Both the position numbers and the translations under genes were made by a program. Shown in pieces: positions 1-62,234 of a DNA stretch of 64,000 bases; the first letter of the stretch is position 1, and each line of letters starts with the position of its first letter. The DNA lies in NCBI GenBank assembly GCA_029210645.1, contig JARGFT010000001.1:235595-299594 (forward strand), given 5' to 3'. The stretch is from Anaerosomatales bacterium. GTDB lineage: Bacteria > Actinomycetota > Coriobacteriia > Anaerosomatales > SLCP01. Below the pieces are notes generated by a model that saw nothing but the letters and a program-made list of their open reading frames with translations, searched no databases and was not told the DNA's origin.

Positions 1-392
1 AGTTCGGAGACGGTGTCCTGTCCGTCGACCCGGATCGCCTGCTCGAGGCAGCCGGCAATCTCAAGGATCTCGGCTTCGATCGGCTGAGCGTCGTTACCGC
101 GGTCGATCGACCAACGCACTTCGAACTCGTCTACCGCCTGTACGCGCGCCCGATGTCGGCGGCGGTCTTCATCAAGTGCAATGTCGACCGGGAGAATCCG
201 AGAGTCCACTCGCTGGCCGGTCTCTGGCCGGCCGCGCTGTGGCAGGAGCGCGAGACATTTGACATGTTCGGGATCATCTTCGAGGGCCATCCAGACCTTC
301 GCAGGATTCTTCTTCCCGATGACTGGGAGGGTTATCCCCTGCGCAAGGACTACCAGGATGAGACCCTTATCCGCAGGCCTGACTACATCTGA
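1..392 (+). CDS. nuoC: NADH-quinone oxidoreductase subunit C (5' truncated by window)
   Basis: Open frame from base 3 (…LSVVTAVDRPTHFELVY…); motif ERETFDMFGIIFEGHPDLRRILLPDDWEGYPLRKDY. Confidence 0.93.
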   Translation, partial: FGDGVLSVDPDRLLEAAGNLKDLGFDRLSVVTAVDRPTHFELVYRLYARPMSAAVFIKCNVDRENPRVHSLAGLWPAALWQERETFDMFGIIFEGHPDLRRILLPDDWEGYPLRKDYQDETLIRRPDYI

Positions 393-406
393 GAGGGGGC
401 GGGAGT

Positions 407-1552
407 GTGACTGCAGAGATAGGAAGTGACGCGTGTTTCACCAATCGGATAGATCCGGGCGTGGACGAACTGGTCGTCAACGTCGGTCCTTCCCATCCGT
501 CCACTCATGGCGTCTGCCGTGTGATCGTCCATCTCGACGGCGAGGTCGTCACCAAGGCAGAACCTGTCATCGGGTATCTGCATCGCGGCATCGAGAAGAT
601 GGCCGAGAACCGCACGTACCTCCAGGTCGTCCCCCTTACGGATCGTCTTGACTACGTCGGGTCGATGTATGCCAACTGGGCGTACTGTCGCGCGGTCGAG
701 CGGCTCGCAGGCATACAGGTGCCCGAGCGTGCCGAGTATCTGCGCGTGATCGTCTGCGAGATGCAGCGCATCGCGAGCCACATGATGTCCCTTGGCTCCG
801 CCGCGGCCGACACCGGAGCGGCCACGATGTTCATCTACGCGTTCGACCAGCGCGAGAGGGTCATCGAGGCGTTCGAGGAGCTGTGCGGTGCGCGACTCAC
901 GTACAACTACGTCCGCCCGGGCGGGGTGAGCTTCGAGATTCCTGAAGGGTGGACCGAGCGGGTGCTGCAGTTCTGCCGCGATCACCGCGAGGGACTCGAG
1001 CAGATGGATCGCCTCTTCTTCGGAAACGTCATTGCCAAGGATCGTATGAAGCACATCGGCGTGCTCTCGCCGGAAGACGCTGTCGCCTGGGGCGCATCGG
1101 GTCCGGTCGCCCGGGGCTCCGGAGTGAACTGGGACATGCGGAAGCACGATCCCTACTCGGTCTACCCGCGGTTCGACTTCGACGTTCCCACCGGCAGCAA
1201 CGGTGACTGCTACGACAGGGCGAGGGTGCGGCTCTTCGAGTGCTACGAGTCATGCCGGATCATCGAGCAGGCTATCTCGCAGATGCACCCGGGCCCGATT
1301 CGCACGCCCGGCTTGCCGAGACTGCTCGCCCCACGTCCGGGTGATGCGTACGACCATATCGAGTCTGCCCGTGGGGCACTCGGGGTCTACCTCGTGTCTG
1401 ATGGCTCGGTGCGTCCCTACCGTATGAAGGTGCGCTCGCCGGCCTTCTGCAACCTTGCTTTGCTGCCGCTTCTCGCCGAAGGCCATATGCTGTCCGACCT
1501 CGTCGTCATCCTGGGAAGCCTCGACCCGGTGTTCGGGGAGGTGGACCGGTGA
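407..1552 (+). CDS. nuoD: NADH-quinone oxidoreductase subunit D
   Basis: GPSHPSTHG, GYLHRGIEK, DRLDY, C-terminal GEVDR; no NiFe CxxC pairs. Confidence 0.95.
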   Translation: MTAEIGSDACFTNRIDPGVDELVVNVGPSHPSTHGVCRVIVHLDGEVVTKAEPVIGYLHRGIEKMAENRTYLQVVPLTDRLDYVGSMYANWAYCRAVERLAGIQVPERAEYLRVIVCEMQRIASHMMSLGSAAADTGAATMFIYAFDQRERVIEAFEELCGARLTYNYVRPGGVSFEIPEGWTERVLQFCRDHREGLEQMDRLFFGNVIAKDRMKHIGVLSPEDAVAWGASGPVARGSGVNWDMRKHDPYSVYPRFDFDVPTGSNGDCYDRARVRLFECYESCRIIEQAISQMHPGPIRTPGLPRLLAPRPGDAYDHIESARGALGVYLVSDGSVRPYRMKVRSPAFCNLALLPLLAEGHMLSDLVVILGSLDPVFGEVDR

Positions 1553-2499
1553 GCGGCCTGGCATGGGGAGCACTCTACGGTTTGGCGGCAGGCCTCGTCA
1601 TAGCGGTCGCCGCTCTGATCGGCGTATGGGGCGAGCGCAAGGTAGCCGGTCGGATCCAGATGCGTATCGGGCCCCAGGAGCTCGGTCCGTTCGGTCTGTT
1701 GCAGACACTCGCCGACACGCTCAAGCTCGTGCTCAAGGAGGACATCACGCCTGCAGCGGCTGACGTGCGCATCTTCCGTATCGCGCCGCTGATCGTCTTC
1801 GCGCCGATCGCGATGTCGTTCGTCATCATCCCGTACGCCTCGGGGTTCGCGCCGTTGGACACAAGCGTCGGGATCCTCTTCTTCATGGCGGTGCCGGCGA
1901 TCTCCGTGATCGGCGTTCTGCTCGCAGGTTGGTCGTCCCGGAACACCTACGCGACCATCGGCGGCCTGCGTGCTGCGGCGCAGATGATCTCATACGAGCT
2001 TCCCCGTACCCTCTCCATCCTGCCCTTCGTCCTGCTTGCGGGGTCGATGCGTCCGCTCGACATCATGGATGAGTGGCGTTGGTGGTGGATCCCGTTGACG
2101 TTCATCGCGTTCGTCGTGTACTTCATATCGTCGATCGCCGAGGTTAATCGCGGGCCCTTTGACCTGCCCGAGGCCGAGTCCGAGCTCGTAGCCGGATACT
2201 TCGCCGATTACTCGGGGATCCGGTGGGCGATCTTCATGATGGCCGAGTACGGCGGCATGGTGGCGGCTGCACTCTTCGGAGCTGTGTTCTGGTTCGGAGG
2301 CTACCTGCATCTTCCTGGCGCGTTCGGTGTGATCATGCTCATCGCGATGGCGACGCTACTTGCGATCGGGATGATCTGGGTGAAGTGGACCTTCCCGCGC
2401 ATGAGACCCGACCAGTTGATGGGCACTGCGTGGAAGGTTCTGACCCCGATGGCTCTCGTCCAGCTCGTGATCATCGGGGTGGTGATTCCGTGGCTGTAA
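1549..2499 (+). CDS. nuoH: NADH-quinone oxidoreductase subunit H
   Basis: ERKVAGRIQMRIGP, AQMISYE, RGPFDLPEAESELVAGY, FPRMRPDQLM. Confidence 0.95.
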   Translation: MSGLAWGALYGLAAGLVIAVAALIGVWGERKVAGRIQMRIGPQELGPFGLLQTLADTLKLVLKEDITPAAADVRIFRIAPLIVFAPIAMSFVIIPYASGFAPLDTSVGILFFMAVPAISVIGVLLAGWSSRNTYATIGGLRAAAQMISYELPRTLSILPFVLLAGSMRPLDIMDEWRWWWIPLTFIAFVVYFISSIAEVNRGPFDLPEAESELVAGYFADYSGIRWAIFMMAEYGGMVAAALFGAVFWFGGYLHLPGAFGVIMLIAMATLLAIGMIWVKWTFPRMRPDQLMGTAWKVLTPMALVQLVIIGVVIPWL

Positions 2500-4580
2500 C
2501 GCATGGCAAGGGCGCCACTCCCCGTCATGACGAGATCGGCGCGCCCGTACGCACCCCGCACGCGGTGCCGGTCACGATCAACGTCACAGATGACTTCCCG
2601 GGCGGGACCAAGGGGTTCTTCGCGCGGTGGCGCTCGCTTCTCACCGGTCTCGGCATCACCGGACGACGTGCGCTCGGGCCTGTTTCGACGCTGCGCTATC
2701 CGCACGAGAAGTACACCCTCTCACCGAGATGGCGCGGTGCGCTCAGACTGCGTGGGGTGCTCGGACGCGACGACATACCGATCATCAGTAGCGCCCCCCC
2801 GGAGTACAACGCCGGTATCGATGAGCTGTATCGCTCCGACCGTCTGCCCCCGTGTGTCGGCAATTGCCCGGCGAATGTCGACGCCCGCGGGCAGGGCTAC
2901 TATCTCGGCGAAGGGCAGCCGGCCGAGGCATACGAGCTGGTCCGGGAGCGCAACATCCTTCCCGGCGTGCTCGGTCGGATCTGCCACCATCCGTGCGAGA
3001 CGGCGTGCCGCCGGAACTACTACGACGAGCCCGTCGCTATCCGGCCGCTGCACCGCCATGCGTACGAAGAGTACGCGAAGGTTGCAAGCGAGCGTCTGAC
3101 GCCCTTCGAGCGCACGCGTACGCAGCGGATCGCCATCATCGGCTCCGGGCCCTCCGGCCTCACGGCAGCCTACGACCTGATGAAGCTCGGCTACGCGGTC
3201 TCTGTCTACGAGAAGGAGAAGAAGCCCGGTGGGGCGCTGTTCTCGGGCGTGCCCTCGTACCGGCTGCCGCGCGAGGTGCTCCAGGATGAGATCGACAACC
3301 TCGTCACTCTGGGCATGGAGCTCAAGCTCGGGGTCGAGGTCGGCAAGGACGTCCCCATCGACTACCTGATAGGCGAGTACGATGCCGTGCTGATCGCTGT
3401 GGGTCTCCAGGAGAGTCGTATCATCCCGGTGCCCGGGCACTCCGCCGAGGGAGTCATGGGTGCTCTGCCCTTCCTGCGCGATGCGAACTGGAAGGGCGAT
3501 GCGGGGGTGAGCGGCAAGCGTGTGCTCGTCATCGGCGGCGGTAACGTCGCCGTCGACGTCGCACGGTGCGCACTTCGCACCGGAGCCGTCGAGGTGCATC
3601 TTGCGTGCCTCGAGGGCGAGGACGAGATGCCGTGTCACCCGTGGGAGATCGAGGAGGCTCTTGACGAGGGAGTCATCGCGATGTGCTCCCTCGGTCCCGA
3701 GGAAGTACTCGTTGACGAGAACGGTAAGGTTCGCGGGATGCGAATGCGGGAGTGCCTGTCGGTATTCGACGCATCCGGGCGTTTCTCTCCGCAGTTCGGT
3801 GAAGAGACGACCGATGTCGAACTCGACGTCATCGTGTTCTCGGTCGGTCAGGGTCCCGTGCTCGCCGATGTGGTCGCCGGTTCCGACTTGACGCTTACCG
3901 AGCGCGGGCTCTTGCCGGTCGACGGGACGCTCTTCACTACTCACCACCCCGGTGTGTTCGCCTGCGGCGAGATCGTGACGGGTCCGGGCAGCGCGATCGC
4001 GTCGATCGCCACCGGTCATGAGGCGGCGACCTCTGTCCATCGCTTTCTTGAAGGCCGTGACCTGGCCGAGGACCGGGTCGCACGGCCGGTTCCGGTCTAC
4101 GACAAGTACCAGGTGGCTGACGTGAAGGGGGTGGAAGCCAACCGGCGCCGCGTCACGATGCCGATGGCCAAGCCAGAAGAGCGCGCCACCGACTTCAGGC
4201 CGGTCGAGCTCGGTCTGACCCATCTGGAAGCACTGAACGAGGCCGCTCGCTGCCTGCGGTGCCAGTCCGAGGTCTGCGTGGGATGCACCTTCTGTGCCCG
4301 CACCTGTCCGGACTATGCCATCGAGGTCGAGCGCACCGACGATCCCGGTGAGCGCCGCGTGACCCACTACGACCTCGACCTCTCGAAGTGCTGCTTCTGT
4401 GGCCTGTGCGCCGAGCAGTGTCCCACCGATGCACTGACGCACACCGGTCAGTACGAGCTGAGTTTCTATCATCGCGAACTGACCATCTTCGACCGGCATG
4501 AGATGGTCCGCGACGGGGGGGGTACCCGCGCGACCGGACGGGATGGCGTGCACGAGGGCGCCCCGGGGGTGACGCAGTGA
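2490..4580 (+). CDS. nuoI: NuoI with inserted GltD/DsrL-like FAD- and Fe-S-containing NAD(P)H oxidoreductase domain
   Basis: In-frame GTG at 2490 overlaps the nuoH end (the track's 2223 start lies deep inside nuoH). NuoI N-terminus (LLTGLGIT…TLRYPHEK…RWRG), then PPCVGNCP, GRICHHPCETACRR, GSGPSG, GGGNVAVD, EAARCLRC, then NuoI ferredoxin CVGCTFCARTCP and DLSKCCFCGLCAEQCPTDAL…YEL. Confidence 0.88.
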   Translation: MAVTHGKGATPRHDEIGAPVRTPHAVPVTINVTDDFPGGTKGFFARWRSLLTGLGITGRRALGPVSTLRYPHEKYTLSPRWRGALRLRGVLGRDDIPIISSAPPEYNAGIDELYRSDRLPPCVGNCPANVDARGQGYYLGEGQPAEAYELVRERNILPGVLGRICHHPCETACRRNYYDEPVAIRPLHRHAYEEYAKVASERLTPFERTRTQRIAIIGSGPSGLTAAYDLMKLGYAVSVYEKEKKPGGALFSGVPSYRLPREVLQDEIDNLVTLGMELKLGVEVGKDVPIDYLIGEYDAVLIAVGLQESRIIPVPGHSAEGVMGALPFLRDANWKGDAGVSGKRVLVIGGGNVAVDVARCALRTGAVEVHLACLEGEDEMPCHPWEIEEALDEGVIAMCSLGPEEVLVDENGKVRGMRMRECLSVFDASGRFSPQFGEETTDVELDVIVFSVGQGPVLADVVAGSDLTLTERGLLPVDGTLFTTHHPGVFACGEIVTGPGSAIASIATGHEAATSVHRFLEGRDLAEDRVARPVPVYDKYQVADVKGVEANRRRVTMPMAKPEERATDFRPVELGLTHLEALNEAARCLRCQSEVCVGCTFCARTCPDYAIEVERTDDPGERRVTHYDLDLSKCCFCGLCAEQCPTDALTHTGQYELSFYHRELTIFDRHEMVRDGGGTRATGRDGVHEGAPGVTQ

Positions 4581-5071
4581 GTCTCGAGAGCGTCATCTTT
4601 GCGGTCCTCGGCATCGTCGCCGTGTCAGGCGGCATAGTGACCGTGTTTGCCCGCGACGTCTCACGTATGGCGATGGGTTTGGGCGCATTCCTGGTGGCGG
4701 TTGCAGGCTTCTTCGTCTACTGGGGAGCGACCTTCCTCGGCATCGTGCAGCTCTTCGTCTACATCGGCGGTGTTCTCGTACTGATGATCTTCGCGATCAT
4801 GCTCGTCCACCGGTCGCCCGACGGTTCTCCGACGATCGAGTCACGGCACGATGTAGCAGCGATAGCCGTCGCTGGAGGATTGTTCTTCATGGTCGTGACG
4901 GCCTTGAGAGGTGTGGTTCCGGACTCGGTAGACCAGGGGATCACCTCGGGCCCGGCGGAGCTGAACGAGGCGTTCCTCGGCCCGATGCTCACGCACTTCG
5001 AGATGGGCGGCGTTCTGTTGCTTGCGGTGCTCGTCGCCGTCGTCGTGATTCTGGGAGGCGATGAGCGATGA
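4577..5071 (+). CDS. nuoJ: NADH-quinone oxidoreductase subunit J
   Basis: Hydrophobic; QLFVYIGGVLVLMIFAIML, HFEMGGVLLL; operon position. Confidence 0.92.
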   Translation: MSLESVIFAVLGIVAVSGGIVTVFARDVSRMAMGLGAFLVAVAGFFVYWGATFLGIVQLFVYIGGVLVLMIFAIMLVHRSPDGSPTIESRHDVAAIAVAGGLFFMVVTALRGVVPDSVDQGITSGPAELNEAFLGPMLTHFEMGGVLLLAVLVAVVVILGGDER

Positions 5072-5373
5072 GCCTGCTGGTCATCACCATCGGGCTGTTC
5101 TCACTGGGGCTGTACGGCATCCTGATCCGCCGAGACCTGGTGGCGATACTCGCGAGCATCGAGGTGATGCTCGGTTCCGCGACCCTCTTGCTCGTCGGCC
5201 TGGCAGCTGCGGGGACGCCGATGGGTACGCACGAGGGAGCGGTGGAGGCGACCGGCGTCATGGTCATCGTCCTCGCCGCTGCCGAGGCGGCTATCGGGCT
5301 CGCGCTGGTGATCTCCGTCGCCCGCCGTTTCAAGACGACCCGTGTCGACGAGCTGGCGGAGGTGAAGGGCTGA
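5068..5373 (+). CDS. nuoK: NADH-quinone oxidoreductase subunit K
   Basis: 101 aa, three TM segments, IEVML and AAEAAIGLAL. Confidence 0.93.
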   Translation: MSLLVITIGLFSLGLYGILIRRDLVAILASIEVMLGSATLLLVGLAAAGTPMGTHEGAVEATGVMVIVLAAAEAAIGLALVISVARRFKTTRVDELAEVKG

Positions 5374-5374
5374 G

Positions 5375-7201
5375 ATGGCTGCCTTCCTCGACCTTGGCTG
5401 GTCTGTCGTCCTGCTTCCGCTGTTGCTGGCGGTGTTGGTGGCCGTGTTCGGGCGGGTGCTCGGACGGTCCATCCCCGTCGTAGCGATCGTCGCGCCGTTG
5501 TGGGTCTTCGTCTACGGCGTCCTCTCCGTACTCGACGGTGTTCACGACCTGTCCCGTGCCGGTTCTGTCGAGTGGCTCACCGCCGCCGGCGCCGGCTCTC
5601 TGACGGTGGGTTGGGCCGTCGACGGATTGACCGCTGTGATGCTCGTGGTCGTCGGCCTCGTGGCATCCCTTGTCGTTCTCTTCTCCGTCGGCTACCTGCA
5701 CGGGGAGAGCGGTCTGCCGCGCTACTTCGCCTCTCTCTGTCTCTTCACGGCTGCGATGAGTATGCTCGTCGTGGCTGACGGGCTGGTCGGGCTCTTCATC
5801 GGGTGGGAACTCGTCGGAGCGTGTTCGTACCTGTTGATCGGCTTCTGGTTCACCCGTCCCGCAGCAGCCAAGGCCGCCGTCAAGGCGTTCCTCACCACCC
5901 GGGTGGGCGATGTCGGGCTCCTGCTCGCGCTCGCACTCCTCTGGCGTGAGGTCGGGGACCTCTCGTACGCGGGCGTGTTTGCCGCCGCCCCTTCGTTGGC
6001 GCCTGCGACCGTCACCGGAGCGAGTCTGCTCCTGCTGGTGGGCGCGATCGGCAAGTCGGCCCAGTTCCCGCTGCAGATCTGGCTCCCGGACGCCATGGAG
6101 GGTCCGACCCCGGTGTCTGCTCTGATTCACGCCGCAACCATGGTGGCGGCAGGCGTCTTCCTTATCGCGCGCACCTGGCCGCTCTTCTCGCTCTCCTCCG
6201 ACGCGCTGGCGATGACGCTTGCGGTTGGTGGGCTCACGGCCATCGGAGCCGCCGCGGCGGCCCTCGTGCAAACGGATATCAAGAAAGTGCTCGCCTACTC
6301 GACGATCAGCCAACTCGGCTTCATGTTCGCCGCTCTCGGCGTCGGGGCGTGGGGTGCGGCGGTGTTCCATCTCGTCACGCACGCAGCGTTCAAGGCGCTG
6401 CTCTTCCTGGGGTCCGGCAGCGTCATCCACGGCTCGGGCACGCAGGAACTCGAGGAGATGGGCGGCCTGTTCCGGAAGATGCCGGTCACGGGTGTCACCT
6501 GGCTGATTGGGGCCGGAGCCCTTGCGGGACTGCCTCCACTGGCCGGCTTCTTCAGCAAGGACGAGATCCTCCACGACGTCGCTCTCGCCGAGCCGGTCTG
6601 GGCGATCCTGCTCTTCGGTGCGAGCCTGATGACCGCGTTCTACGTTGCTCGCACGACCCGCCTTGCATTCTTCGACACGTACCGCGGGAACGGGCATCCT
6701 CACGAAGGCGGTTGGAGTATGCGGCTGCCGCTCATCGCACTGGCGACGCTCGCGGCTGCGATCGGATTCGCGGCCACGTGGCTTGCGGAGACACTCGGTA
6801 CCCATCACGGTTCGCTCGATCTTCGTGTCGCAGCGGGCTCGACACTGCTGGCAGCCCTCGGCCTTCTTGCCGGCTGGAAGGTTTCGGGAGTCGACCACAC
6901 AGGTTCGATGCAGCCGCGCATGGCCACACTTGCCAGCCTCATGAGGGAAGGGTGGGGAGCCGACAGACTCGTCGAGCGCGTGCTGCTCGCACCGGTCGCG
7001 AGCGCGTCGCAGTTCCTCTACAGATTCGTCGACCGGAAGGCCGTCGATGGCATCGCCGAGGGTACCGCTCCGTTTGCCCGCAGAGTGGGTCGCGCGTTCA
7101 GCTCGTTGCAGTCGGGTGACGCGCAATGGTACGCGACGATGCTGGGGGCAGGGGCCGTCGCCCTGCTCGCCGTCGTCTCCTACGTCGGGCGGGGGCTGTG
7201 A
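5375..7201 (+). CDS. nuoL: NADH-quinone oxidoreductase subunit L
   Basis: GKSAQFPLQIWLPDAMEGPTPVSALIHAATMV, DIKKVLAYSTISQLG, HAAFKALLFLGSG. Confidence 0.95.
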   Translation: MAAFLDLGWSVVLLPLLLAVLVAVFGRVLGRSIPVVAIVAPLWVFVYGVLSVLDGVHDLSRAGSVEWLTAAGAGSLTVGWAVDGLTAVMLVVVGLVASLVVLFSVGYLHGESGLPRYFASLCLFTAAMSMLVVADGLVGLFIGWELVGACSYLLIGFWFTRPAAAKAAVKAFLTTRVGDVGLLLALALLWREVGDLSYAGVFAAAPSLAPATVTGASLLLLVGAIGKSAQFPLQIWLPDAMEGPTPVSALIHAATMVAAGVFLIARTWPLFSLSSDALAMTLAVGGLTAIGAAAAALVQTDIKKVLAYSTISQLGFMFAALGVGAWGAAVFHLVTHAAFKALLFLGSGSVIHGSGTQELEEMGGLFRKMPVTGVTWLIGAGALAGLPPLAGFFSKDEILHDVALAEPVWAILLFGASLMTAFYVARTTRLAFFDTYRGNGHPHEGGWSMRLPLIALATLAAAIGFAATWLAETLGTHHGSLDLRVAAGSTLLAALGLLAGWKVSGVDHTGSMQPRMATLASLMREGWGADRLVERVLLAPVASASQFLYRFVDRKAVDGIAEGTAPFARRVGRAFSSLQSGDAQWYATMLGAGAVALLAVVSYVGRGL

Positions 7202-8649
7202 TGATCGCGCTCGAGATGCTCATCGTCATTCCCCTCCTGGGCGTCGTTGCATGCCTGCTGGTAGGTAGGTCCGATCCGTCGCGCGCGCGAGTCGCCGCAC
7301 TGGTGGCATCCCTCGGATTCGTTGCTGCTCTTCTTTCGCTCGCTGCTGAGGGGGTATTCTCCGGTGAGGCCGTCTCCGGCCTCTCTCTGGCGCCGGGTTC
7401 GGTTCCCTTCTGGGACCTGCGGATCGATGGCCTTTCCGCGCCGTTGCTCGCGCTGACCGCTCTCCTTGGTCCTGTTGCGGTGTTGGCATCGTGGAGGGTC
7501 GAGGAGAGGGCTGCCGCACACCACGCGCTCCTCCTCGCGCTGCAGGCCGCGGTGGCCGGTGTCTTCCTCGCTGCAGACGTCGTGCTCCTCTACGTCTTCT
7601 GGGAGGCGGTCCTGATCCCGATGTACTTTCTCATCGGTGTGTGGGGCCACGAGGACCGACGCCATGCCGCGATGAAGTTCTTCGTCTACACCTTCGCAGG
7701 CAGCGCATTGATGCTCGTGGGCATACTGGTATCGGTGTTCACGATCGGGACGACCAACATCGAATCCCTTATCGCCGGCCGGGTCGCACTCGCCGACCCG
7801 ATGCTGGTCTTCTGGCTGCTCGCGGCTGGCATGCTTGTCAAATTGCCGGCATTCCCGCTCCACACCTGGCTGCCCGACGCTCACGTCGAGGCCCCGACAG
7901 CAGGCTCCATTCTGCTCGCGGGAGTGCTGCTCAAAATGGGTGGCTACGGGCTGCTTCGTCTCGCCATACCGATCGCACCCGGACCCTTTGCCGATGTCGC
8001 GTGGATCTTCGCGGTGCTCGGTGGTATCGGAATCGTGTACGGTGCGATGGTCGCGCTGGCGCAGACGGACCTCAAGCGGCTCGTAGCGTATTCGAGCGTG
8101 GCCCACATGGGGTTCGTCATGCTTGCGCTCTCGGCGGGAGGGGAGCGCGGTTTCTCGGCAGCCATGCTCGTCATGGTCAGTCACGGGGTTATCGCGCCCC
8201 TGCTCTTCCTCCTCGTCGGACAGTTGTACGACCGGACTCATACGCGCGAGATCGCGCGCTTCGGGGGGTTCGGCTCTGTGGTGCCCCGGTGGGGGACCGC
8301 ACTGACCTTCGGGGCTCTGGCAAGTCTCGGTCTGCCGGGCCTGTCGGGTTTCCCGGGTGAGTTCCTTGCGGTGGTCGAGGGCTTCGGTGCCTGGTCGTGG
8401 CTGGTCGCCCTTGCAATGCCGGGAGTAGTGCTTGCTGCTGCGTACAACCTGCGAGCCGTGCGTGAGGTCGTGCACGGTAAGGTTGCAGGCGAGTGGGCGG
8501 GCATCCCGGATCTGTCGATCGCAGATCTGATCCCGGTTCTGCTGCTTGCTGCCGTCATCGTAGCTCTCGGCGTGTGGCCCAGGATCGTGCTCGCGATTAC
8601 CGGTGACGTCTTCGCCTCACTCGCGCTGCTCATCGGAACGGGGGCCTGA
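7201..8649 (+). CDS. nuoM: NADH-quinone oxidoreductase subunit M
   Basis: ATG overlaps the nuoL stop (alternative GTG 7198); YVFWE, PLHTWLPDAHVEAP, LLKMGGYG, KRLVAYSSVAHMG. Confidence 0.95.
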   Translation: MIALEMLIVIPLLGVVACLLVGRSDPSRARVAALVASLGFVAALLSLAAEGVFSGEAVSGLSLAPGSVPFWDLRIDGLSAPLLALTALLGPVAVLASWRVEERAAAHHALLLALQAAVAGVFLAADVVLLYVFWEAVLIPMYFLIGVWGHEDRRHAAMKFFVYTFAGSALMLVGILVSVFTIGTTNIESLIAGRVALADPMLVFWLLAAGMLVKLPAFPLHTWLPDAHVEAPTAGSILLAGVLLKMGGYGLLRLAIPIAPGPFADVAWIFAVLGGIGIVYGAMVALAQTDLKRLVAYSSVAHMGFVMLALSAGGERGFSAAMLVMVSHGVIAPLLFLLVGQLYDRTHTREIARFGGFGSVVPRWGTALTFGALASLGLPGLSGFPGEFLAVVEGFGAWSWLVALAMPGVVLAAAYNLRAVREVVHGKVAGEWAGIPDLSIADLIPVLLLAAVIVALGVWPRIVLAITGDVFASLALLIGTGA

Positions 8650-8650
8650 C

Positions 8651-10090
8651 GTGACCGAGGTCAGCATGCTGGTCGCATTCGCGCCCCACATCGCGTGCGT
8701 GATCGGGGCTGCTGCGGCAGTGGCCGCAGATGCGTTCGAGCGCCGGGGGCTAGCGATCACTCTCGCGGTCGTCGGCCTGATCGCCGGAGCCGTCCTCGCG
8801 TTTGCGAGCAGCGCTCGCGCGCCAGAGCTGACCGGCGACGTCGTGCTCTCGGGTACGGGCTTCTCGGCCACGGTCGGGATCATCTGTACGATAGCAGCAC
8901 TCGTGCTTGTCGGTTCGTGGCGCCCGCTCACCGAGGCAGATCACGGCGGCGGCCTTGCAGCGCTGGCAGCAGTCTTGGTCGCAGCGGCGGCATCGGCTGC
9001 GGTCGCCGCCGACATCCTCGTACTCCTCATCGCGCTGGAGGCGATGGCACTCTGCGCGTACGCGCTGGTGTGGTCTGCTCGCACCGCTGCCGCCACCGAG
9101 GCTGCGGTGAAGTACTTCGTTCAGGGCGCGATCGCCACGGGGCTGTTTGTACTCGGTCTTGCGATCATCTTCGGTCTGTACGGCGGCTCTACGTCCTACG
9201 TGTGGATCCGCGGAGTCATGGGTGCCGAGACCGGACCCCCGGTGACGACGGCGTTTGTTCTGATCGGTGTGGCGCTCGCCTATAAGATCGGCGCCTTCCC
9301 GTTCCACTCGTGGGCTCTCGACGCTTTCGAATCAGCACCCCCTCACTTCTCAGCGCTCCTGGCAGGCGTTCCCAAACTCGCCGTTGTCGTCTCGATGATC
9401 ATCTTGTTCTCGCGCTCGGTCTTCGCCGGCCTGGACGCCGCTTACACGCTGTGGGTCTTCGCGATCCTCGCTGTCCTCTCGATGGCGTTCGGCGCAACCG
9501 GGGGCCTGCTGCAGCGTTCCTACACGCGGATGCTCGCATACTCCGGAGTTGCCCAGATCGGCTATGCACTGGTGGGTGTCGCGCTCGGTGCTGTCTCCAT
9601 GACCTCGGTCGCGCTCCTGCTGACCGCGTATGCGCTTGCGGCAGCAGGCGCATTCCTTGCCGCCGGCGCATTTGCGGCCGCACGGCCCGGATGGGACGGA
9701 ACTATCGCGGGGCTGGCCGGACTGGGCAGAGAGCGTCCGTGGCTCGGTGCGGCGGTTGCAGTCGCGATGTTCTCGCTTATCGGGATGCCGTTGACCGCAG
9801 GGTTCTGGGGGAAGTTCCTCGTCTTCGGTGTTGCCGTGTCCGGAGGGTACTGGTGGCTGGCACTGATCGGCGTCATCGCGTCGGTGATCTCCTTCGGGTA
9901 CTACGGGGCAGTCCTGAAGTCCCTGTACTTCGAGTCAGCGCCAACGCGCGATGACGTGGCGGCGGAGGCTCGCCCCGACCGCGTCTCCGAGGTGGCTGTC
10001 GTCGTCACAGCGCTGCTCGTCCTTGCTATCGGCTGCGCCCCTCTACTCTTCGGTCTGCAGCAGATCCTGAGGGTGCTGACCTTCGCGTAG
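8651..10090 (+). CDS. nuoN: NADH-quinone oxidoreductase subunit N
   Basis: Start GTG 8651 (or ATG 8666); EAAVKYF, KIGAFPFHSW, RMLAYSG, PLTAGFWGKF. Confidence 0.92.
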   Translation: MTEVSMLVAFAPHIACVIGAAAAVAADAFERRGLAITLAVVGLIAGAVLAFASSARAPELTGDVVLSGTGFSATVGIICTIAALVLVGSWRPLTEADHGGGLAALAAVLVAAAASAAVAADILVLLIALEAMALCAYALVWSARTAAATEAAVKYFVQGAIATGLFVLGLAIIFGLYGGSTSYVWIRGVMGAETGPPVTTAFVLIGVALAYKIGAFPFHSWALDAFESAPPHFSALLAGVPKLAVVVSMIILFSRSVFAGLDAAYTLWVFAILAVLSMAFGATGGLLQRSYTRMLAYSGVAQIGYALVGVALGAVSMTSVALLLTAYALAAAGAFLAAGAFAAARPGWDGTIAGLAGLGRERPWLGAAVAVAMFSLIGMPLTAGFWGKFLVFGVAVSGGYWWLALIGVIASVISFGYYGAVLKSLYFESAPTRDDVAAEARPDRVSEVAVVVTALLVLAIGCAPLLFGLQQILRVLTFA

Positions 10091-10152: not shown

Positions 10153-10221
10153 ATGAGTTGCATGCAAGTGCAACCCCTTACCCCTGAGCCTCAAGGTGCC
10201 GGCCTTGGGGCTCTCCCTTTT
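10153..10221 (+). ncRNA. Candidate ~70-nt sRNA or attenuator leader
   Basis: Directly downstream of the promoter: hairpin GTTGCA/TGCAAC, C-rich linker CCCCTTACCCCT, terminator hairpin with T run. Confidence 0.45.
10186..10221 (+). terminator. Intrinsic terminator
   Basis: GAGCCTCAAGG/CCTTGGGGCTC 11-bp stem (one G-U) followed by TCCCTTTT. Confidence 0.7.
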
Positions 10222-10251
10222 GTGCGGCCGTTTTCGGGTCGATCGAAGTGG

Positions 10252-10279
10252 TCAAGGGGTCGACGGCCTTGGCCGATAC
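10252..10279 (+). promoter_or_regulatory. Sigma28 (FliA/SigD/WhiG-type) promoter TCAA-N16-GCCGATAC
   Basis: Matches TAAA-N15/16-GCCGATAA consensus; ends 10 nt before the FlgM-like ATG. Confidence 0.6.
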
Positions 10280-10289
10280 AGAAGGTACG

Positions 10290-10544
10290 ATGATTATCTC
10301 TGATGAGCAGGTCCGACTCGCCGTCGACTACCTGCTGACACACGACACGGATACCGACGAGACTCCGCCCTGCGAGGTCCCCGAGCAGCTTCTCAAACGC
10401 GTCAACGAGACGCTTCGGGCGCTTCCGGAGACGCGGGACGAGCGGCTCATGGAGGCGAGGGCACGGCTGGAGGCTCATCCGCCGTCGGCTCACGAGGTCG
10501 CAGCCAAGATCATCGGACGCGCCATCTCGGACTCCCTGCGCTAG
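10290..10544 (+). CDS. flgM: FlgM-like anti-sigma-28 factor
   Basis: 84 aa from ATG 10290 (MIISDEQV…); C-terminal LPETRDERLMEARARL…EVAAKIIGR resembles the FlgM sigma-binding helices; sigma28-like promoter upstream. Confidence 0.6.
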   Translation: MIISDEQVRLAVDYLLTHDTDTDETPPCEVPEQLLKRVNETLRALPETRDERLMEARARLEAHPPSAHEVAAKIIGRAISDSLR

Positions 10545-10636
10545 ACACCGCATCTCCTCGCGCAGCGGTGCTGGCGTCGTACCTTCGTAGCCTCCATACT
10601 CGGAGTAGCGCTGTGCGTTCGATCCGGGGGGACGCG

Positions 10637-10924
10637 ATGTCAGGCTCGAGCCGATCTCACACGATTCTCACGCTCTTCATGAACGTGCTCTTCTTCGTCG
10701 CCGTCCTTATCACGGGGCGCGTCGTCATCGAGTTCTTCGGTGCACTTGCCATGACGACCGCGGGGGGTGCGATCGTCTCCGTCACAGACATTGTCATCAT
10801 CCCGGCCGGTGTCGCGGGCGTGCGCACTCCGTACGGAGGAGTGTTCGACGTGGACGCGGCGATCACCGTCGGGGTTGTGCTCGTGCTGGAGTGGGCGCTC
10901 AGCGTCGTACGGGCACGGGGATAG
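10637..10924 (+). CDS. Small membrane protein (YggT-like)
   Basis: ATG 10637 after GGGGGG RBS; two hydrophobic segments flanking a VTD…P…GGVFD pattern. Confidence 0.5.
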   Translation: MSGSSRSHTILTLFMNVLFFVAVLITGRVVIEFFGALAMTTAGGAIVSVTDIVIIPAGVAGVRTPYGGVFDVDAAITVGVVLVLEWALSVVRARG

Positions 10925-59981: not shown

Positions 59982-60327
59982 GGAGTGGGCCTGTAAGCCG
60001 GATTCTGTCGGGGATGATCATCTATCTGGGACCACGATCGCTCGTGACCTCGTGCGGGCTAACCCGAGCGTCGGTCGGGCCGACCTTAGCCGCTCCTATT
60101 CGCCCTTGCTCCGGGTGGGGTTTGCCAAGCCGCCACGTTGCCGTGACGCTGGTGCGCTCTTACCGCACCGTTTCAGCTTTTCCCCCGCTCGAGAGCGGGG
60201 GAGTCTTCTTTTCTGTGGCACTTTCCGTCGGATCGCTCCGCCCTGCCGTTAGCAGGCACCCTGCCCTGTGGAGTCCGGACTTTCCTCACGAATCCTGAAG
60301 ACCCGCGCGATCATCCAGCCCACTCCG
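59982..60327 (-). ncRNA. rnpB: RNase P RNA (type A)
   Basis: Minus strand GAGGAAAGTCCGGACTCC…ACAGAATCCGGCTTA; P1 GGAGTGGGC/GCCCACTCC; TAGAAT -10 at 60334-60339. Confidence 0.96.
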
Positions 60328-60384
60328 GTGATGATTCTAGCAGGTGGCGCGCCAGGTGGGGTTCAGAGGTGGCGCTGCCGAGAC

Positions 60385-62085
60385 TCAGGCGGTGTCCTGA
60401 CGTCCCTGCGACTGCAGCTTCGCCCAGGCGTCCCGCAACGTGAGTGTCCGGTTGAACACCGGTGCATCAGGTGCCGACTCGATGTCCGCGCAGAAGTAGC
60501 CGAGCCGTTCGAACTGAACGGTCTGGCCCACGGCAGGGTCTGCCAGCGCCGGTTCGACGAAGCACGTCGGCAGAACCGTCTCCGACTCGGGGTTCAAGTC
60601 TTCGAAGAGGTCGCGCCCGTCGCTACCGGGGTATGGATCGCCGAAGAGGTGGTCATACAGCCGCACCTCGGCGGGAACGGCGTGAGCACAGGAAACCCAG
60701 TGAAGGGTGGCCTTGGGACGGCGTCCGTCAGGTGCGCTGCCGCCTCGCGTGTCGGGATCGTACGTGCAGCGCAGCTCTGTGATGGTGCCATCTGCGTCCT
60801 TGACGACGTCGGTGCAGGTGACGAAGTACGCGGACCGCAGGCGGACCTCGCGGCCGGGAGCGAGGCGGAAGAACTTCTTGGGCGGGTCCTCCATGAAGTC
60901 GTCGCGCTCGATCCAGAGTTCCCGGGTGAAGGGCACGGTGCGCGTCCCGGCCGCCGGGTCCTCGGGATTGTTGACGACGTCGAGCTCCTCGACCTGGTCC
61001 TCCGGATAGTTCTCGATGACCAGCTTGACGGGATTGAGAACCGCGAAGCGGCGCAGGGCGGTCCGGTTCAGCACGTTGCGCACCGCATGATGGAGCATCT
61101 CGACCTCCACGATGCTGTCTGCCCGTGCGACCCCGATCATCGCCGCGAAGTCGCGGATCCCCTCGGCAGGGAATCCCCTCCGCCGCAGAGCGGAGATCGT
61201 CGGCATTCGCGGATCGTCCCATCCGCGTACGTGTCCCTCGGACACGAGACGCAGAAGCACTCGCTTGGAGAGCACGGTGTGCGTGAGGTTCAAGCGTGCG
61301 AACTCGTACTGGCGCGGCCTGGAGGGCACCGGCAGGTTCTCGACGAACCAGTCGTACAGCGGTCGGTGGTCCTGGAACTCCAGCGTGCAGATCGAGTGCG
61401 TGATGTTCTCGATGGCATCGGACTGCCCGTGAGCGAAATCGTACGACGGGTAGATGCACCACGCGTCACCCGTGCGAGGGTGTGGCGCGTGCAGGATACG
61501 GTACATCACCGGGTCGCGGAAGTTGATGTTGGGCGAGGCCATGTCGATCTTCGCGCGCAGGACTCGCGATCCGTTGGGGAACTCGCCGGCGCGCATCCTC
61601 TCGAAGAGGTCGAGGTTCTCGTCGACCGAGCGGTTTCGCCACGGACTCTCGATGCCCGGCTCGGTCAGGGTGCCCCGGTGCTCGCGGATCTCGTCCGCGG
61701 AAAGGTCGTCGACGTAGGCCTTGCCGTCCCGGATCAGGTGGACGGCCCACGCGTAGAGCTGTTCGAAGTAGTCCGAGGCGAAGTAGAGGTGTTCGCCCCA
61801 GTCGAAACCGAGCCAGCGGACGTCCTCCTCGATCGAATCGATGAACTCCTGCTCTTCCTTGATCGGGTTCGTGTCGTCGAATCGCAGGTGGCAGCGGCCA
61901 CCGAACTCCTCGGCGATACCGAAGTTCAGGCAGATCGACTTCGCATGTCCGATGTGCAGGTAGCCGTTGGGCTCCGGAGGGAATCGCGTGACGACCGACT
62001 CATGCCGGCCTTCACGCAGGTCAGCGGCGACGATCTCGCGCAGGAAGTCAGCGCGCTCGGGTGCGGGTGCGGGATTGGTGTCCAT
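60385..62085 (-). CDS. glnS: Glutamine--tRNA ligase
   Basis: ATG 62085 (MDTNP…); [47 protein letters not shown]. Confidence 0.95.
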
Positions 62086-62114
62086 GGAGGCAGAGGATAG
62101 CACAGGAAACAGCA

Positions 62115-62145
62115 GGAGGCCCCCTCTACATGAGAGGAGGCCTCC
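62115..62145 (-). terminator. Hairpin downstream of tRNA-Glu
   Basis: GGAGGC..CCTC…GAGG.GGCCTCC inverted repeat just past the tRNA 3' end. Confidence 0.55.
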
Positions 62146-62154
62146 GTTGTCTGT

Positions 62155-62230
62155 TGGTAGCCCGTACGGGATTCGAACCCGTGATTTCCGCCTTGAGAGG
62201 GCGGCGTCCTCACCGCTAGACCAACGGGCC
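62155..62230 (-). tRNA. tRNA-Glu (CTC)
   Basis: GGCCCGTTGGTCTAGCGG…CCGCC-CT-CTC-AA-GGCGG…GGTTCGAATCC…CGGGCTACCA. Confidence 0.96.
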
Positions 62231-62234
62231 ATAC

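Follow-up and report, generated by a model that had tools for sequence, protein, structure and literature searches.

An iron-sulphur flavoprotein inserted into the NuoI subunit of an 11-subunit complex I: a candidate built-in electron-input module in Anaerosomatales

The 64,000-nucleotide stretch analysed here (the window; Anaerosomatales bacterium, assembly GCA_029210645.1, contig JARGFT010000001.1, positions 235,595 to 299,594 of the forward strand) contains most of an 11-gene complex I operon, nuoABCDHI*JKLMN, with nuoA and nuoB located just ahead of the window start. The nuoI slot, with nuoH upstream and nuoJ downstream, is occupied by a single open frame of 696 codons (I*, the fused nuoI), in which an iron-sulphur flavoprotein of the NfnB/GltD type, approximately 500 residues long, lies between the two halves of NuoI. 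A sequence-only reading of the DNA had described a single gene of ~696 residues in this position and proposed that the flavoprotein stands in for the NuoEFG input module of complex I. We confirm the gene between nuoH and nuoJ, and every motif quoted in that reading was found where it had been placed. It is probable, in our judgement, that the insert forms a hard-wired input module of flavin adenine dinucleotide (FAD) and two [4Fe-4S] clusters, which would feed the NuoI clusters N6a and N6b, then N2, and finally menaquinone. In this lineage, the input to 11-subunit complex I appears to be built into the NuoI subunit itself.

Architecture of the fused NuoI

The frame begins with a GTG at 2490 that overlaps the nuoH stop codon (2497-2499) and is immediately preceded by a purine-rich GGTGGTGA-like stretch. 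Translation from another in-frame GTG, at 2565, would yield a product of 671 residues. We prefer the start at 2490 because the 25 extra residues are conserved in a homologue that is 68% identical (P0122). Both numberings are used below; residue numbers of the 671-residue form are marked as such, and adding 25 converts them to the 696-residue form.

Residues 35-89 align with residues 4-56 of Paracoccus NuoI (8qby_I; E 3.4e-6) and residues ~592-677 with residues 60-146 of the same protein (E 7.6e-18). The NCBIfam NuoI profile (TIGR01971) also matches in two stretches, at profile positions 1-42 and 40-121. By the two terminal alignments and the two profile stretches, NuoI is cleanly split between positions ~56 and ~60 (Paracoccus numbering). 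In the N-terminal part, the AlphaFold2 model of the whole chain (predicted local distance difference test score, 89.6; predicted template modelling score, 0.86) has a helix at residues 15-37 (671 numbering). In a 50%-representative library, 12 of the best 150 proteins extend over the NuoI N-terminus, with identities as low as 36%, one of them named Candidatus Subteraquimicrobiales; the NuoI residues T42, Y45, P46, R57 and G58 (671 numbering) are invariant in all 12 of these fused proteins.

At the other end, Pfam places Fer4_7 at residues 596-648. The ferredoxin domain of the genome's own normal NuoI scored 43.5-60.5 bits against the C-terminal domains of all 12 fused proteins, versus 26-39 bits against the ferredoxin domains of all 16 nearest unfused flavoproteins. 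The window protein has a spacing of 38 between its two Cys motifs; fused proteins have 35-40 and normal NuoI has 39, compared with 28-32 in the unfused relatives. By score and spacing, the fused C-terminal domain is nearer to NuoI than the ferredoxin domain of the unfused relatives is, and the refuting outcome named in the sequence-only reading, termini closer to generic DsrL/GltD ferredoxins than to NuoI, did not occur.

Between the two halves, a Pfam scan found Fer4_20 (61 bits; cut-off, 25.8) and Pyr_redox_2 (83.2 bits; cut-off, 26.1), the arrangement that the sequence-only reading had expected. In fold, the AlphaFold2 model matches best with StnC, the large subunit of NfnABC, NfnB and GltD. 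The same genome encodes a canonical NfnB-like protein on contig C41, with the N-terminus ...ER..DF.EV.LGYT...EAARCLQC....C...CP, which served as an internal control for the order of the segments. BLASTP against this protein returned two high-scoring segment pairs in reversed order: residues 97-501 of the window protein align with its residues 68-486 (217 bits), and residues 529-574 with its residues 26-72 (43 bits; E 2e-8; 49% identity; both ranges in 671 numbering). The insert is therefore circularly permuted, such that the segment that is N-terminal in NfnB here follows the flavin domains. The permutation break falls inside the first Cys motif, leaving C...CP at 122-127 and RCLRC at 587-591, and the displaced ER..F..EA.RCLxC segment ends five residues before the first NuoI cysteine. 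We also considered RCLRC as part of the ferredoxin domain, but rejected this assignment, as the alignments show that it belongs to the segment with which the GltD fold normally begins and which is displaced here.

Candidate cofactor ligands

The candidate ligands of the Fer4_20 domain are Cys122, Cys126, Cys165, Cys169, Cys173, Glu170 and His188 (696 numbering). In 671 numbering, Cys97, Cys101, Cys140, Cys144, Cys148 and Glu145 are invariant in the 12 fused proteins, as are Cys563, Cys566 and the eight ferredoxin-type cysteines; the 15 cysteines and Glu145 are still invariant across 65 sequences that include 22 unfused relatives. This pattern would provide the cassette with seven cysteines and one further ligand for two [4Fe-4S] clusters, and leave the eight ferredoxin-type cysteines for N6a and N6b. 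In NuoI, electrons enter at N6a, which is bound by the first three cysteines of motif 1. Cys566 and Cys571 (671 numbering; Cys591 and Cys596 in the longer form) are only five residues apart, so if they bind neighbouring clusters, the outer cassette cluster would lie beside the first NuoI cluster. The position of Lys170 in StnC, a reported cluster ligand (PMC10482914), is occupied by His in eight of the 12 fused proteins and by Lys in the other four. NuoI carries N6a and N6b, and NuoB carries N2 (cofactor table).

Distribution and genomic context

A search of 5.8 billion proteins listed 120 homologue clusters, all of them with 635-745 residues and 68-95% identity to the window protein; those with a taxon name are Coriobacteriia or Coriobacteriales. 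We then sampled 301 genomes of the class, 143 of the same order and 158 of other orders. A copy at least 60% identical is present in 126 of the 143 genomes of the order (112 near full length and 14 partial, most of the latter cut at contig ends), and no match better than E 1e-101 was obtained in the 158 genomes of the other orders. Outside the class, full-length profile matches occur in 19 of 369 genomes with 11 family codes (from a 401-genome sample of the phylum), and these fused copies are 34-50% identical. Six of the phylum matches carried flags for internal stop codons; we rejected these flags as terminal stops that had been read through, all frames being intact.

The fused gene was found in a nuo cluster wherever flanking sequence exists. 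This holds for both fused loci of a genome-contig scan (L013 and L014), for 11 of 11 loci of close relatives, where nuoJ lies downstream in all cases and nuoH upstream in ten, the eleventh being cut by a contig end, and for all 16 loci found outside the class, of which 14 place the gene between nuoD-nuoH and nuoJ/K/L/M. All 20 loci that were read through have one uninterrupted frame. Even between deeply diverged lineages, then, the fusion is retained within nuo operons, in favour of the sequence-only reading. In public annotations the gene goes by the names "FAD-dependent oxidoreductase" and "glutamate synthase beta subunit-like"; the fusion is common in its lineage and has been overlooked in annotation.

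The remaining two of these 16 loci have unusual arrangements. L207 (G383 contig C26) has divergent nuoB-C-D-I* and nuoA-H-J-K-L-M-N, with the fused gene straight after nuoD. At L208 (G642 contig C46, 200-10669), from a distant actinobacterial genome, a fused nuoI of the YRR type (see below), 34% identical and located at the contig end, is followed by five antiporter-like genes of the NuoL/M/N type; the locus may encode a relative of complex I that has additional pumping subunits.

The genome-contig scan, which used the fused-family alignment, was dominated by generic GltD patterns, L013 and L014 being the only fused loci among the 80 listed. A metagenome-contig scan with six distant fused members gave no locus that is fused or has nuo neighbours among the 80 listed, and it yielded no locus context for P0148, P0156, P0170 and the Moorella-type protein P0161. 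None of the 158 non-fused loci of the two scans has nuo neighbours. One of the loci, L022 from a Thermotogae metagenome-assembled genome, was considered as an Mbx subunit and rejected, as it holds a 1521-residue HdrA-like fusion.

Coenzyme motif and core tree

In Rossmann folds, an acidic residue at the end of strand 2 favours NAD(H), while a pair of arginines favours NADP(H). At this position of the second dinucleotide fold, the window protein has ACLEGED, where StnC, 9bov_A and the genome's NfnB-like protein have YRRT. Among 32 fused rows, half (16) have (C/M)LE and half (16) have YRR. Under this rule, the replacement of YRR by CLE makes NADH the likely donor in the clade of the window protein, while the sister clades with YRR probably use NADPH.

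We computed a quick maximum-likelihood tree of the flavoprotein core from 56 rows, with the genome's NfnB-like protein as the single outgroup. All 16 (C/M)LE fused rows, 22 unfused rows and a CLE-type Moorella-type row form one clade of 39 rows with a support of 99 in the Shimodaira-Hasegawa-like approximate likelihood ratio test (SH-aLRT); a regular expression scored 14 of the 22 unfused rows as CLE and left eight unscored. All 16 YRR rows fall outside this clade. The 22 unfused rows, of the GltD-ferredoxin-MvhD type, and the Moorella-type row form one clade (99) that is nested among the CLE-type fused rows, a nesting that speaks weakly to the direction of evolution, since the unfused rows in the tree are only the best matches to a CLE-type query. 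The Moorella-type row, P0161, is a Bacillota cluster that includes Neomoorella glycerini WP_156271450.1 (623 residues). Inspected by eye, its N-terminus resembles that of NuoI/HycF (YP...P...RG); its cassette is of the CLE type and permuted like the others, and its second Cys motif is a variant that lacks CP. As it nests among unfused proteins, it may have arisen as a separate fusion.

Electron-transfer genes elsewhere in the genome

The genome (1.98 Mb, 46 contigs) has a completeness rating of 100%. Neither a NuoE-type (PF01257) nor a NuoG-type (PF10588) domain has a match in it, and its sole NuoF-type domain (Complex1_51K, PF01512) is that of RnfC within rnfCDGEAB. The genome search proposed in the sequence-only reading therefore agrees with the absence of a NuoEFG module. 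A gene for heptaprenyl diphosphate synthase component I comes after rnfCDGEAB.

A second nuo operon on contig C2 has a normal NuoI of 168 residues, and its subunits are 33-51% identical to those of the window. The organism thus encodes two complex I-like enzymes with different input subunits. On the quinone side, MenA (1,4-dihydroxy-2-naphthoate polyprenyltransferase) is present with 323 bits, above its cut-off of 264. It lies ~2 kb from a gene similar to Mrp-type antiporter subunit B on contig C41. Inspected by eye, NuoB keeps the CC..E, GNC and GCPP cysteines, presumably those of N2, and NuoD has HPSTHG and GYLHRG.EK, presumably the motifs with the quinone-site His and Tyr.

The NfnA-type domain PF10418 has two matches in the genome, one directly upstream of the NfnB-like gene on contig C41 and another on contig C3.

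Table 1. Positions of the fused nuoI, its parts and other genes discussed in the text. Positions refer to the window unless a contig is given; residues are in 696 numbering.
Feature	Position	Strand	Residues	Basis or remark
fused nuoI	2490..4580	+		one open frame, 696 codons
NuoI N-terminal part: amphipathic helix, YPHEK, RWRG	2592..2756	+	35-89	8qby_I, TIGR01971
YPHEK			70-74	
RWRG			80-83	
linker from NuoI strand to insert	2757..2846	+	90-119	length varies among homologues (alignment)
Fer4_20 Fe-S domain of insert	2847..3074	+	120-195	Pfam, alignments
PPCVGNCP			120-127	
GRICHHPCETAC			162-173	
FAD and NAD(P)H Rossmann domains, Pyr_redox_2	3126..4016	+	213-509	Pfam
GSGPSG (FAD fold)	3141-3158		218-223	
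GGGNVAVD	3534-3557		349-356	
ACLEGED, end of strand 2 (CLE at residues 373-375)	3603-3623			
permuted segment, ends RCLRC	4149..4262	+	554-591	homologous to canonical NfnB/GltD N-terminus
RCLRC			587-591	
NuoI 2x[4Fe-4S] domain, long NuoI-type spacer, YE tail	4275..4520	+	596-677	
CVGCTFCARTCP			596-607	
CCFCGLCAEQCP			634-645	
QYELSF			654-659	
nuoC (3' part)	within 3..2499	+		Pfam
nuoD	407-1552	+		Pfam
nuoH	1549-2499	+		Pfam
nuoJ	4577-5071	+		Pfam
nuoJ, nuoK, nuoL, nuoM, nuoN	4577..10090	+		Pfam
second nuo operon	contig C2, ~41.2-50.9 kb (L010 4210-13900)	-		complete nuoABCDHIJKLMN
rnfCDGEAB	contig C11, ~158.9-164 kb (L012 6885-12004)			
MenA and antiporter gene	contig C41, ~57.1-58.0 and 59.9-61.2 kb (L186)			
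NfnA-like and NfnB-like pair	contig C41, 101.5-103.9 kb			YRR-type, linear Cys motif order

The genes examined beyond nuoN and before nuoA are housekeeping or otherwise non-nuo genes. Within the operon, the nuoL and nuoM frames as listed overlap by 76 bases (7126-7201), and the real nuoM start is probably further downstream. Just past nuoN, the window holds two small open reading frames at 10191-10924, of 120 (minus strand) and 118 residues (plus strand), with no Pfam match at E 1e-5. Long overlapping frames on both strands occupy 60268-62232 (610 residues, plus; 615 residues, minus); the plus-strand frame has no Pfam match at E 1e-8.

Proposed mechanism and alternatives

NuoEFG, the module that has no counterpart here, comprises flavin mononucleotide (FMN) and 5-7 clusters. 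We propose that a permuted NfnB/GltD-type cassette, spliced into NuoI just before the first cluster-binding cysteine, would take its place. NAD(P)H would transfer a hydride to FAD (NADH here, NADPH in the YRR clades), and electrons would leave FAD singly via the proximal and then the distal [4Fe-4S] cluster of the cassette. The outer cluster would be ligated partly by Cys588 and Cys591, which precede Cys596, assigned to the first NuoI cluster, by only 5-8 residues. The next steps would be N6a, N6b and N2 in NuoB, followed by menaquinone at the NuoD/NuoH site, and the antiporter-like subunits would pump protons. With its input path hard-wired in this manner, the cassette would substitute for NuoEFG. 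This proposal builds on the observed architecture, ligand conservation and operon position, on the absence of NuoE, NuoF and NuoG, and on the presence of MenA. The architecture described in the sequence-only reading is borne out, and each of its proposed computational checks that was carried out agreed with it; that the flavoprotein functionally replaces the NuoEFG input is what we infer, with NADH likelier than NADPH in this clade, and the cofactor content, distances, direction and pumping are likewise predictions.

Several findings weigh against the proposal. Rnf, the NfnAB-like pair and the second nuo operon are all present, and NADH could be handled elsewhere in the cell. The futalosine marker MqnA/D (PF02621) has no match in the genome, and among the men genes the search covered MenA. 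The NuoI profile match reaches 94.5 bits, below its curated cut-off of 113.05, with its two stretches lying ~500 residues apart, and PRK12771, a subfamily named 'NAD(P)-binding protein', gives 451 against a cut-off of 516. As PRK12814 (353; cut-off, 916) and gltA TIGR01316 (276 bits; cut-off, 472) fall short too, the protein reaches none of the curated cut-offs of NCBIfam and no family name transfers a function to it; by its gltA score, it is not a glutamate synthase. No CLE-type protein named in our searches has a characterised function, and the prediction of NADH rests on a general Rossmann-fold rule. Finally, 17 of the 143 genomes of the order have no fused copy.

The same wiring might be used in reverse, with menaquinol and the proton-motive force, or reduced ferredoxin docking elsewhere, reducing NAD(P)+. 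Complex I is reversible, and the YRR-type members look NADPH-specific, which would suit a biosynthetic supply of NADPH. A reverse direction would also agree with the interpretation by Degli Esposti (2015) of those mbx-like complexes that carry a gltD-related subunit (PMC4758237), and a cultured relative has been described as respiring with H2 or thiosulfate. We nevertheless regard it as unlikely for the window protein, given that the NfnAB-like pair and Rnf already connect ferredoxin, NADH and NADPH in this genome and that the clade of the window protein is without the NADPH-type YRR motif; the sequence itself sets no direction. It seems improbable, too, that the insert handles some other soluble substrate or partner as a redox module and is not a pyridine-nucleotide input: the two dinucleotide folds are intact, as are the glycine motifs in them, all are conserved, and solved homologues bind FAD and NADPH at the corresponding sites. 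Such a role may nonetheless hold for the CLE-type unfused relatives with MvhD-like tails, probably in Hdr-like complexes, and in the core tree the 22 unfused proteins of the GltD-ferredoxin-MvhD type lie within the CLE-type fused group (SH-aLRT 99); nor is there a characterised CLE-type member, and PRK12771 is named only as an 'NAD(P)-binding protein' subfamily.

The sequence-only reading had also raised electron bifurcation, in which the FAD would be a bifurcating site as in NfnB and work with a partner, NfnA-like or other. NfnB does rank among the best matches in both fold and sequence, and the Glu beside the cluster cysteine is invariant. The bifurcation idea found no support, however: the examined nuo loci have no NfnA-like gene in or near them, the one PF10418 match of two whose surroundings were examined sits directly beside a canonical NfnB-like partner gene on contig C41, and StnC, one of the two nearest solved permuted relatives, is reported to be non-bifurcating (PMC10482914). 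Bifurcation is thus very unlikely. An assembly chimera, a frameshift or a pseudogene joining two genes has a negligible probability and is refuted by the comparative data, as homologues from independent assemblies share the architecture in uninterrupted frames (120 of 120 listed clusters, the 112 near-full-length copies of the order, and 20 of 20 loci) and all cofactor ligands are conserved.

To a broader picture, which extends our preferred reading of a hard-wired input module, we would assign a little less than an even chance. The permuted cassette, with its ends meeting in one cluster-binding loop, would be a portable plug-in electron-input module; its splicing into NuoI at the electron-entry cluster would have created an NAD(P)H:menaquinone oxidoreductase that pumps protons without FMN or NuoEFG and is widespread among the anaerobic Actinomycetota; the coenzyme site would have switched once within the family, from the NADPH-type YRR to the NADH-type CLE; and the soluble GltD-ferredoxin-MvhD proteins would perhaps derive from the NuoI-hosted form.

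Implications

The electron donor of the 11-subunit complex I has been stated to be unknown (PMC11238625), and another study did not identify a common partner (PMC3144371). The first cultured members of the order (OPB41/Anaerosomatales) are described as having nuoNMLKJIHDCBA and no NuoEFG, with ferredoxin suggested as a possible donor; a flavoprotein in NuoI is not mentioned in the passages of the isolate paper that were consulted. The sequence-only reading did not recognise the architecture as described. Our literature search agrees as far as nuo operons are concerned, in that it found no paper describing a flavoprotein inside the NuoI of one, but the principle has precedents in the published accounts of StnC (PMC10482914) and of mbx-like operons (PMC4758237).

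If the proposal is true, metabolic models of these subsurface bacteria should gain an NADH- or NADPH-linked proton pump, and the cassette, with FAD and two clusters, would be a minimal natural N-module for complex I. The parallel between StnC and NuoI would then point to a reusable insertion cassette for the evolution and design of redox enzymes. Since cultured isolates exist, the prediction is directly testable.

Comparison with known systems

Canonical NuoI (Nqo9/TYKY; TIGR01971/PRK05888) shares with the window protein the N-terminal helix, YP..K, R.RG, two CxxCxxCxxxCP motifs, the long spacer, the YE tail and the operon slot; it differs in that the window protein has ~500 residues inserted between positions ~56 and ~60. 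NfnB, the GltD small subunit and domains I-III of DPD resemble the insert in having Fer4_20, FAD and NAD(P)H folds with seven Cys and one Glu. Their RCLxC segment is N-terminal, however, and the genome's NfnB-like protein keeps that order as well as YRR.

The best sequence and fold matches are StnC of StnABC (8oh5_C) and the NfnABC large subunit (9bov_A, 9n5u_A), with 32-33% identity over ~530 residues and the same permuted order (C...CP, FAD, NAD, ER..F..EA.RCLxC). In these proteins, too, the cassette is used as an insert within an Fe-S host protein. The GltD domain of StnC (residues 102-565) is reported to be inserted in a NuoG-like protein and to contain FAD and two [4Fe-4S] clusters; bifurcation has been lost, electrons go singly to the following clusters, and StnC is described as a non-bifurcating NADPH input (PMC10482914). 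The window protein is a StnC-type cassette in a different host. The host of StnC and the NfnABC large subunit is NuoG-like and belongs to a soluble transhydrogenase with HydBC-like partners, whereas here it is the NuoI of a membrane complex, and the nucleotide site has CLEG in place of the YRRT of StnC and 9bov_A.

The PRK12771-type GltD-ferredoxin-MvhD-like proteins (P0130-P0174) have a cassette that is 36-41% identical, in the permuted order and with the CLE motif. Unlike the window protein, they have no NuoI N-terminus, and they carry a short-spacer ferredoxin domain and a C-terminal extension.

Among complex I relatives, Degli Esposti (2015) described a gltD-related flavoprotein that replaces NuoI in mbx-like operons of Thermotoga and proteobacteria, and read the gltD-like subunit as a site of NAD(P)+ reduction (PMC4758237). 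By that description, a GltD-type flavoprotein that reacts with NAD(P) takes the place of NuoI in both systems. The mbx-like case is a substitution in Mrp-type operons, however, while the operon of the window has the gene set nuoABCDHIJKLMN and its NuoD is of the complex I type; it contains neither Mrp-type antiporter genes nor an Mbx-type NuoD. The other inputs of 11-subunit relatives and of complex I, namely NuoEFG, FpoF and docking ferredoxin or flavodoxin, likewise deliver electrons to the NuoI clusters. All of these are separate subunits or carriers, whereas the predicted donor site of the window enzyme lies inside the NuoI polypeptide and would use FAD rather than FMN or F420.

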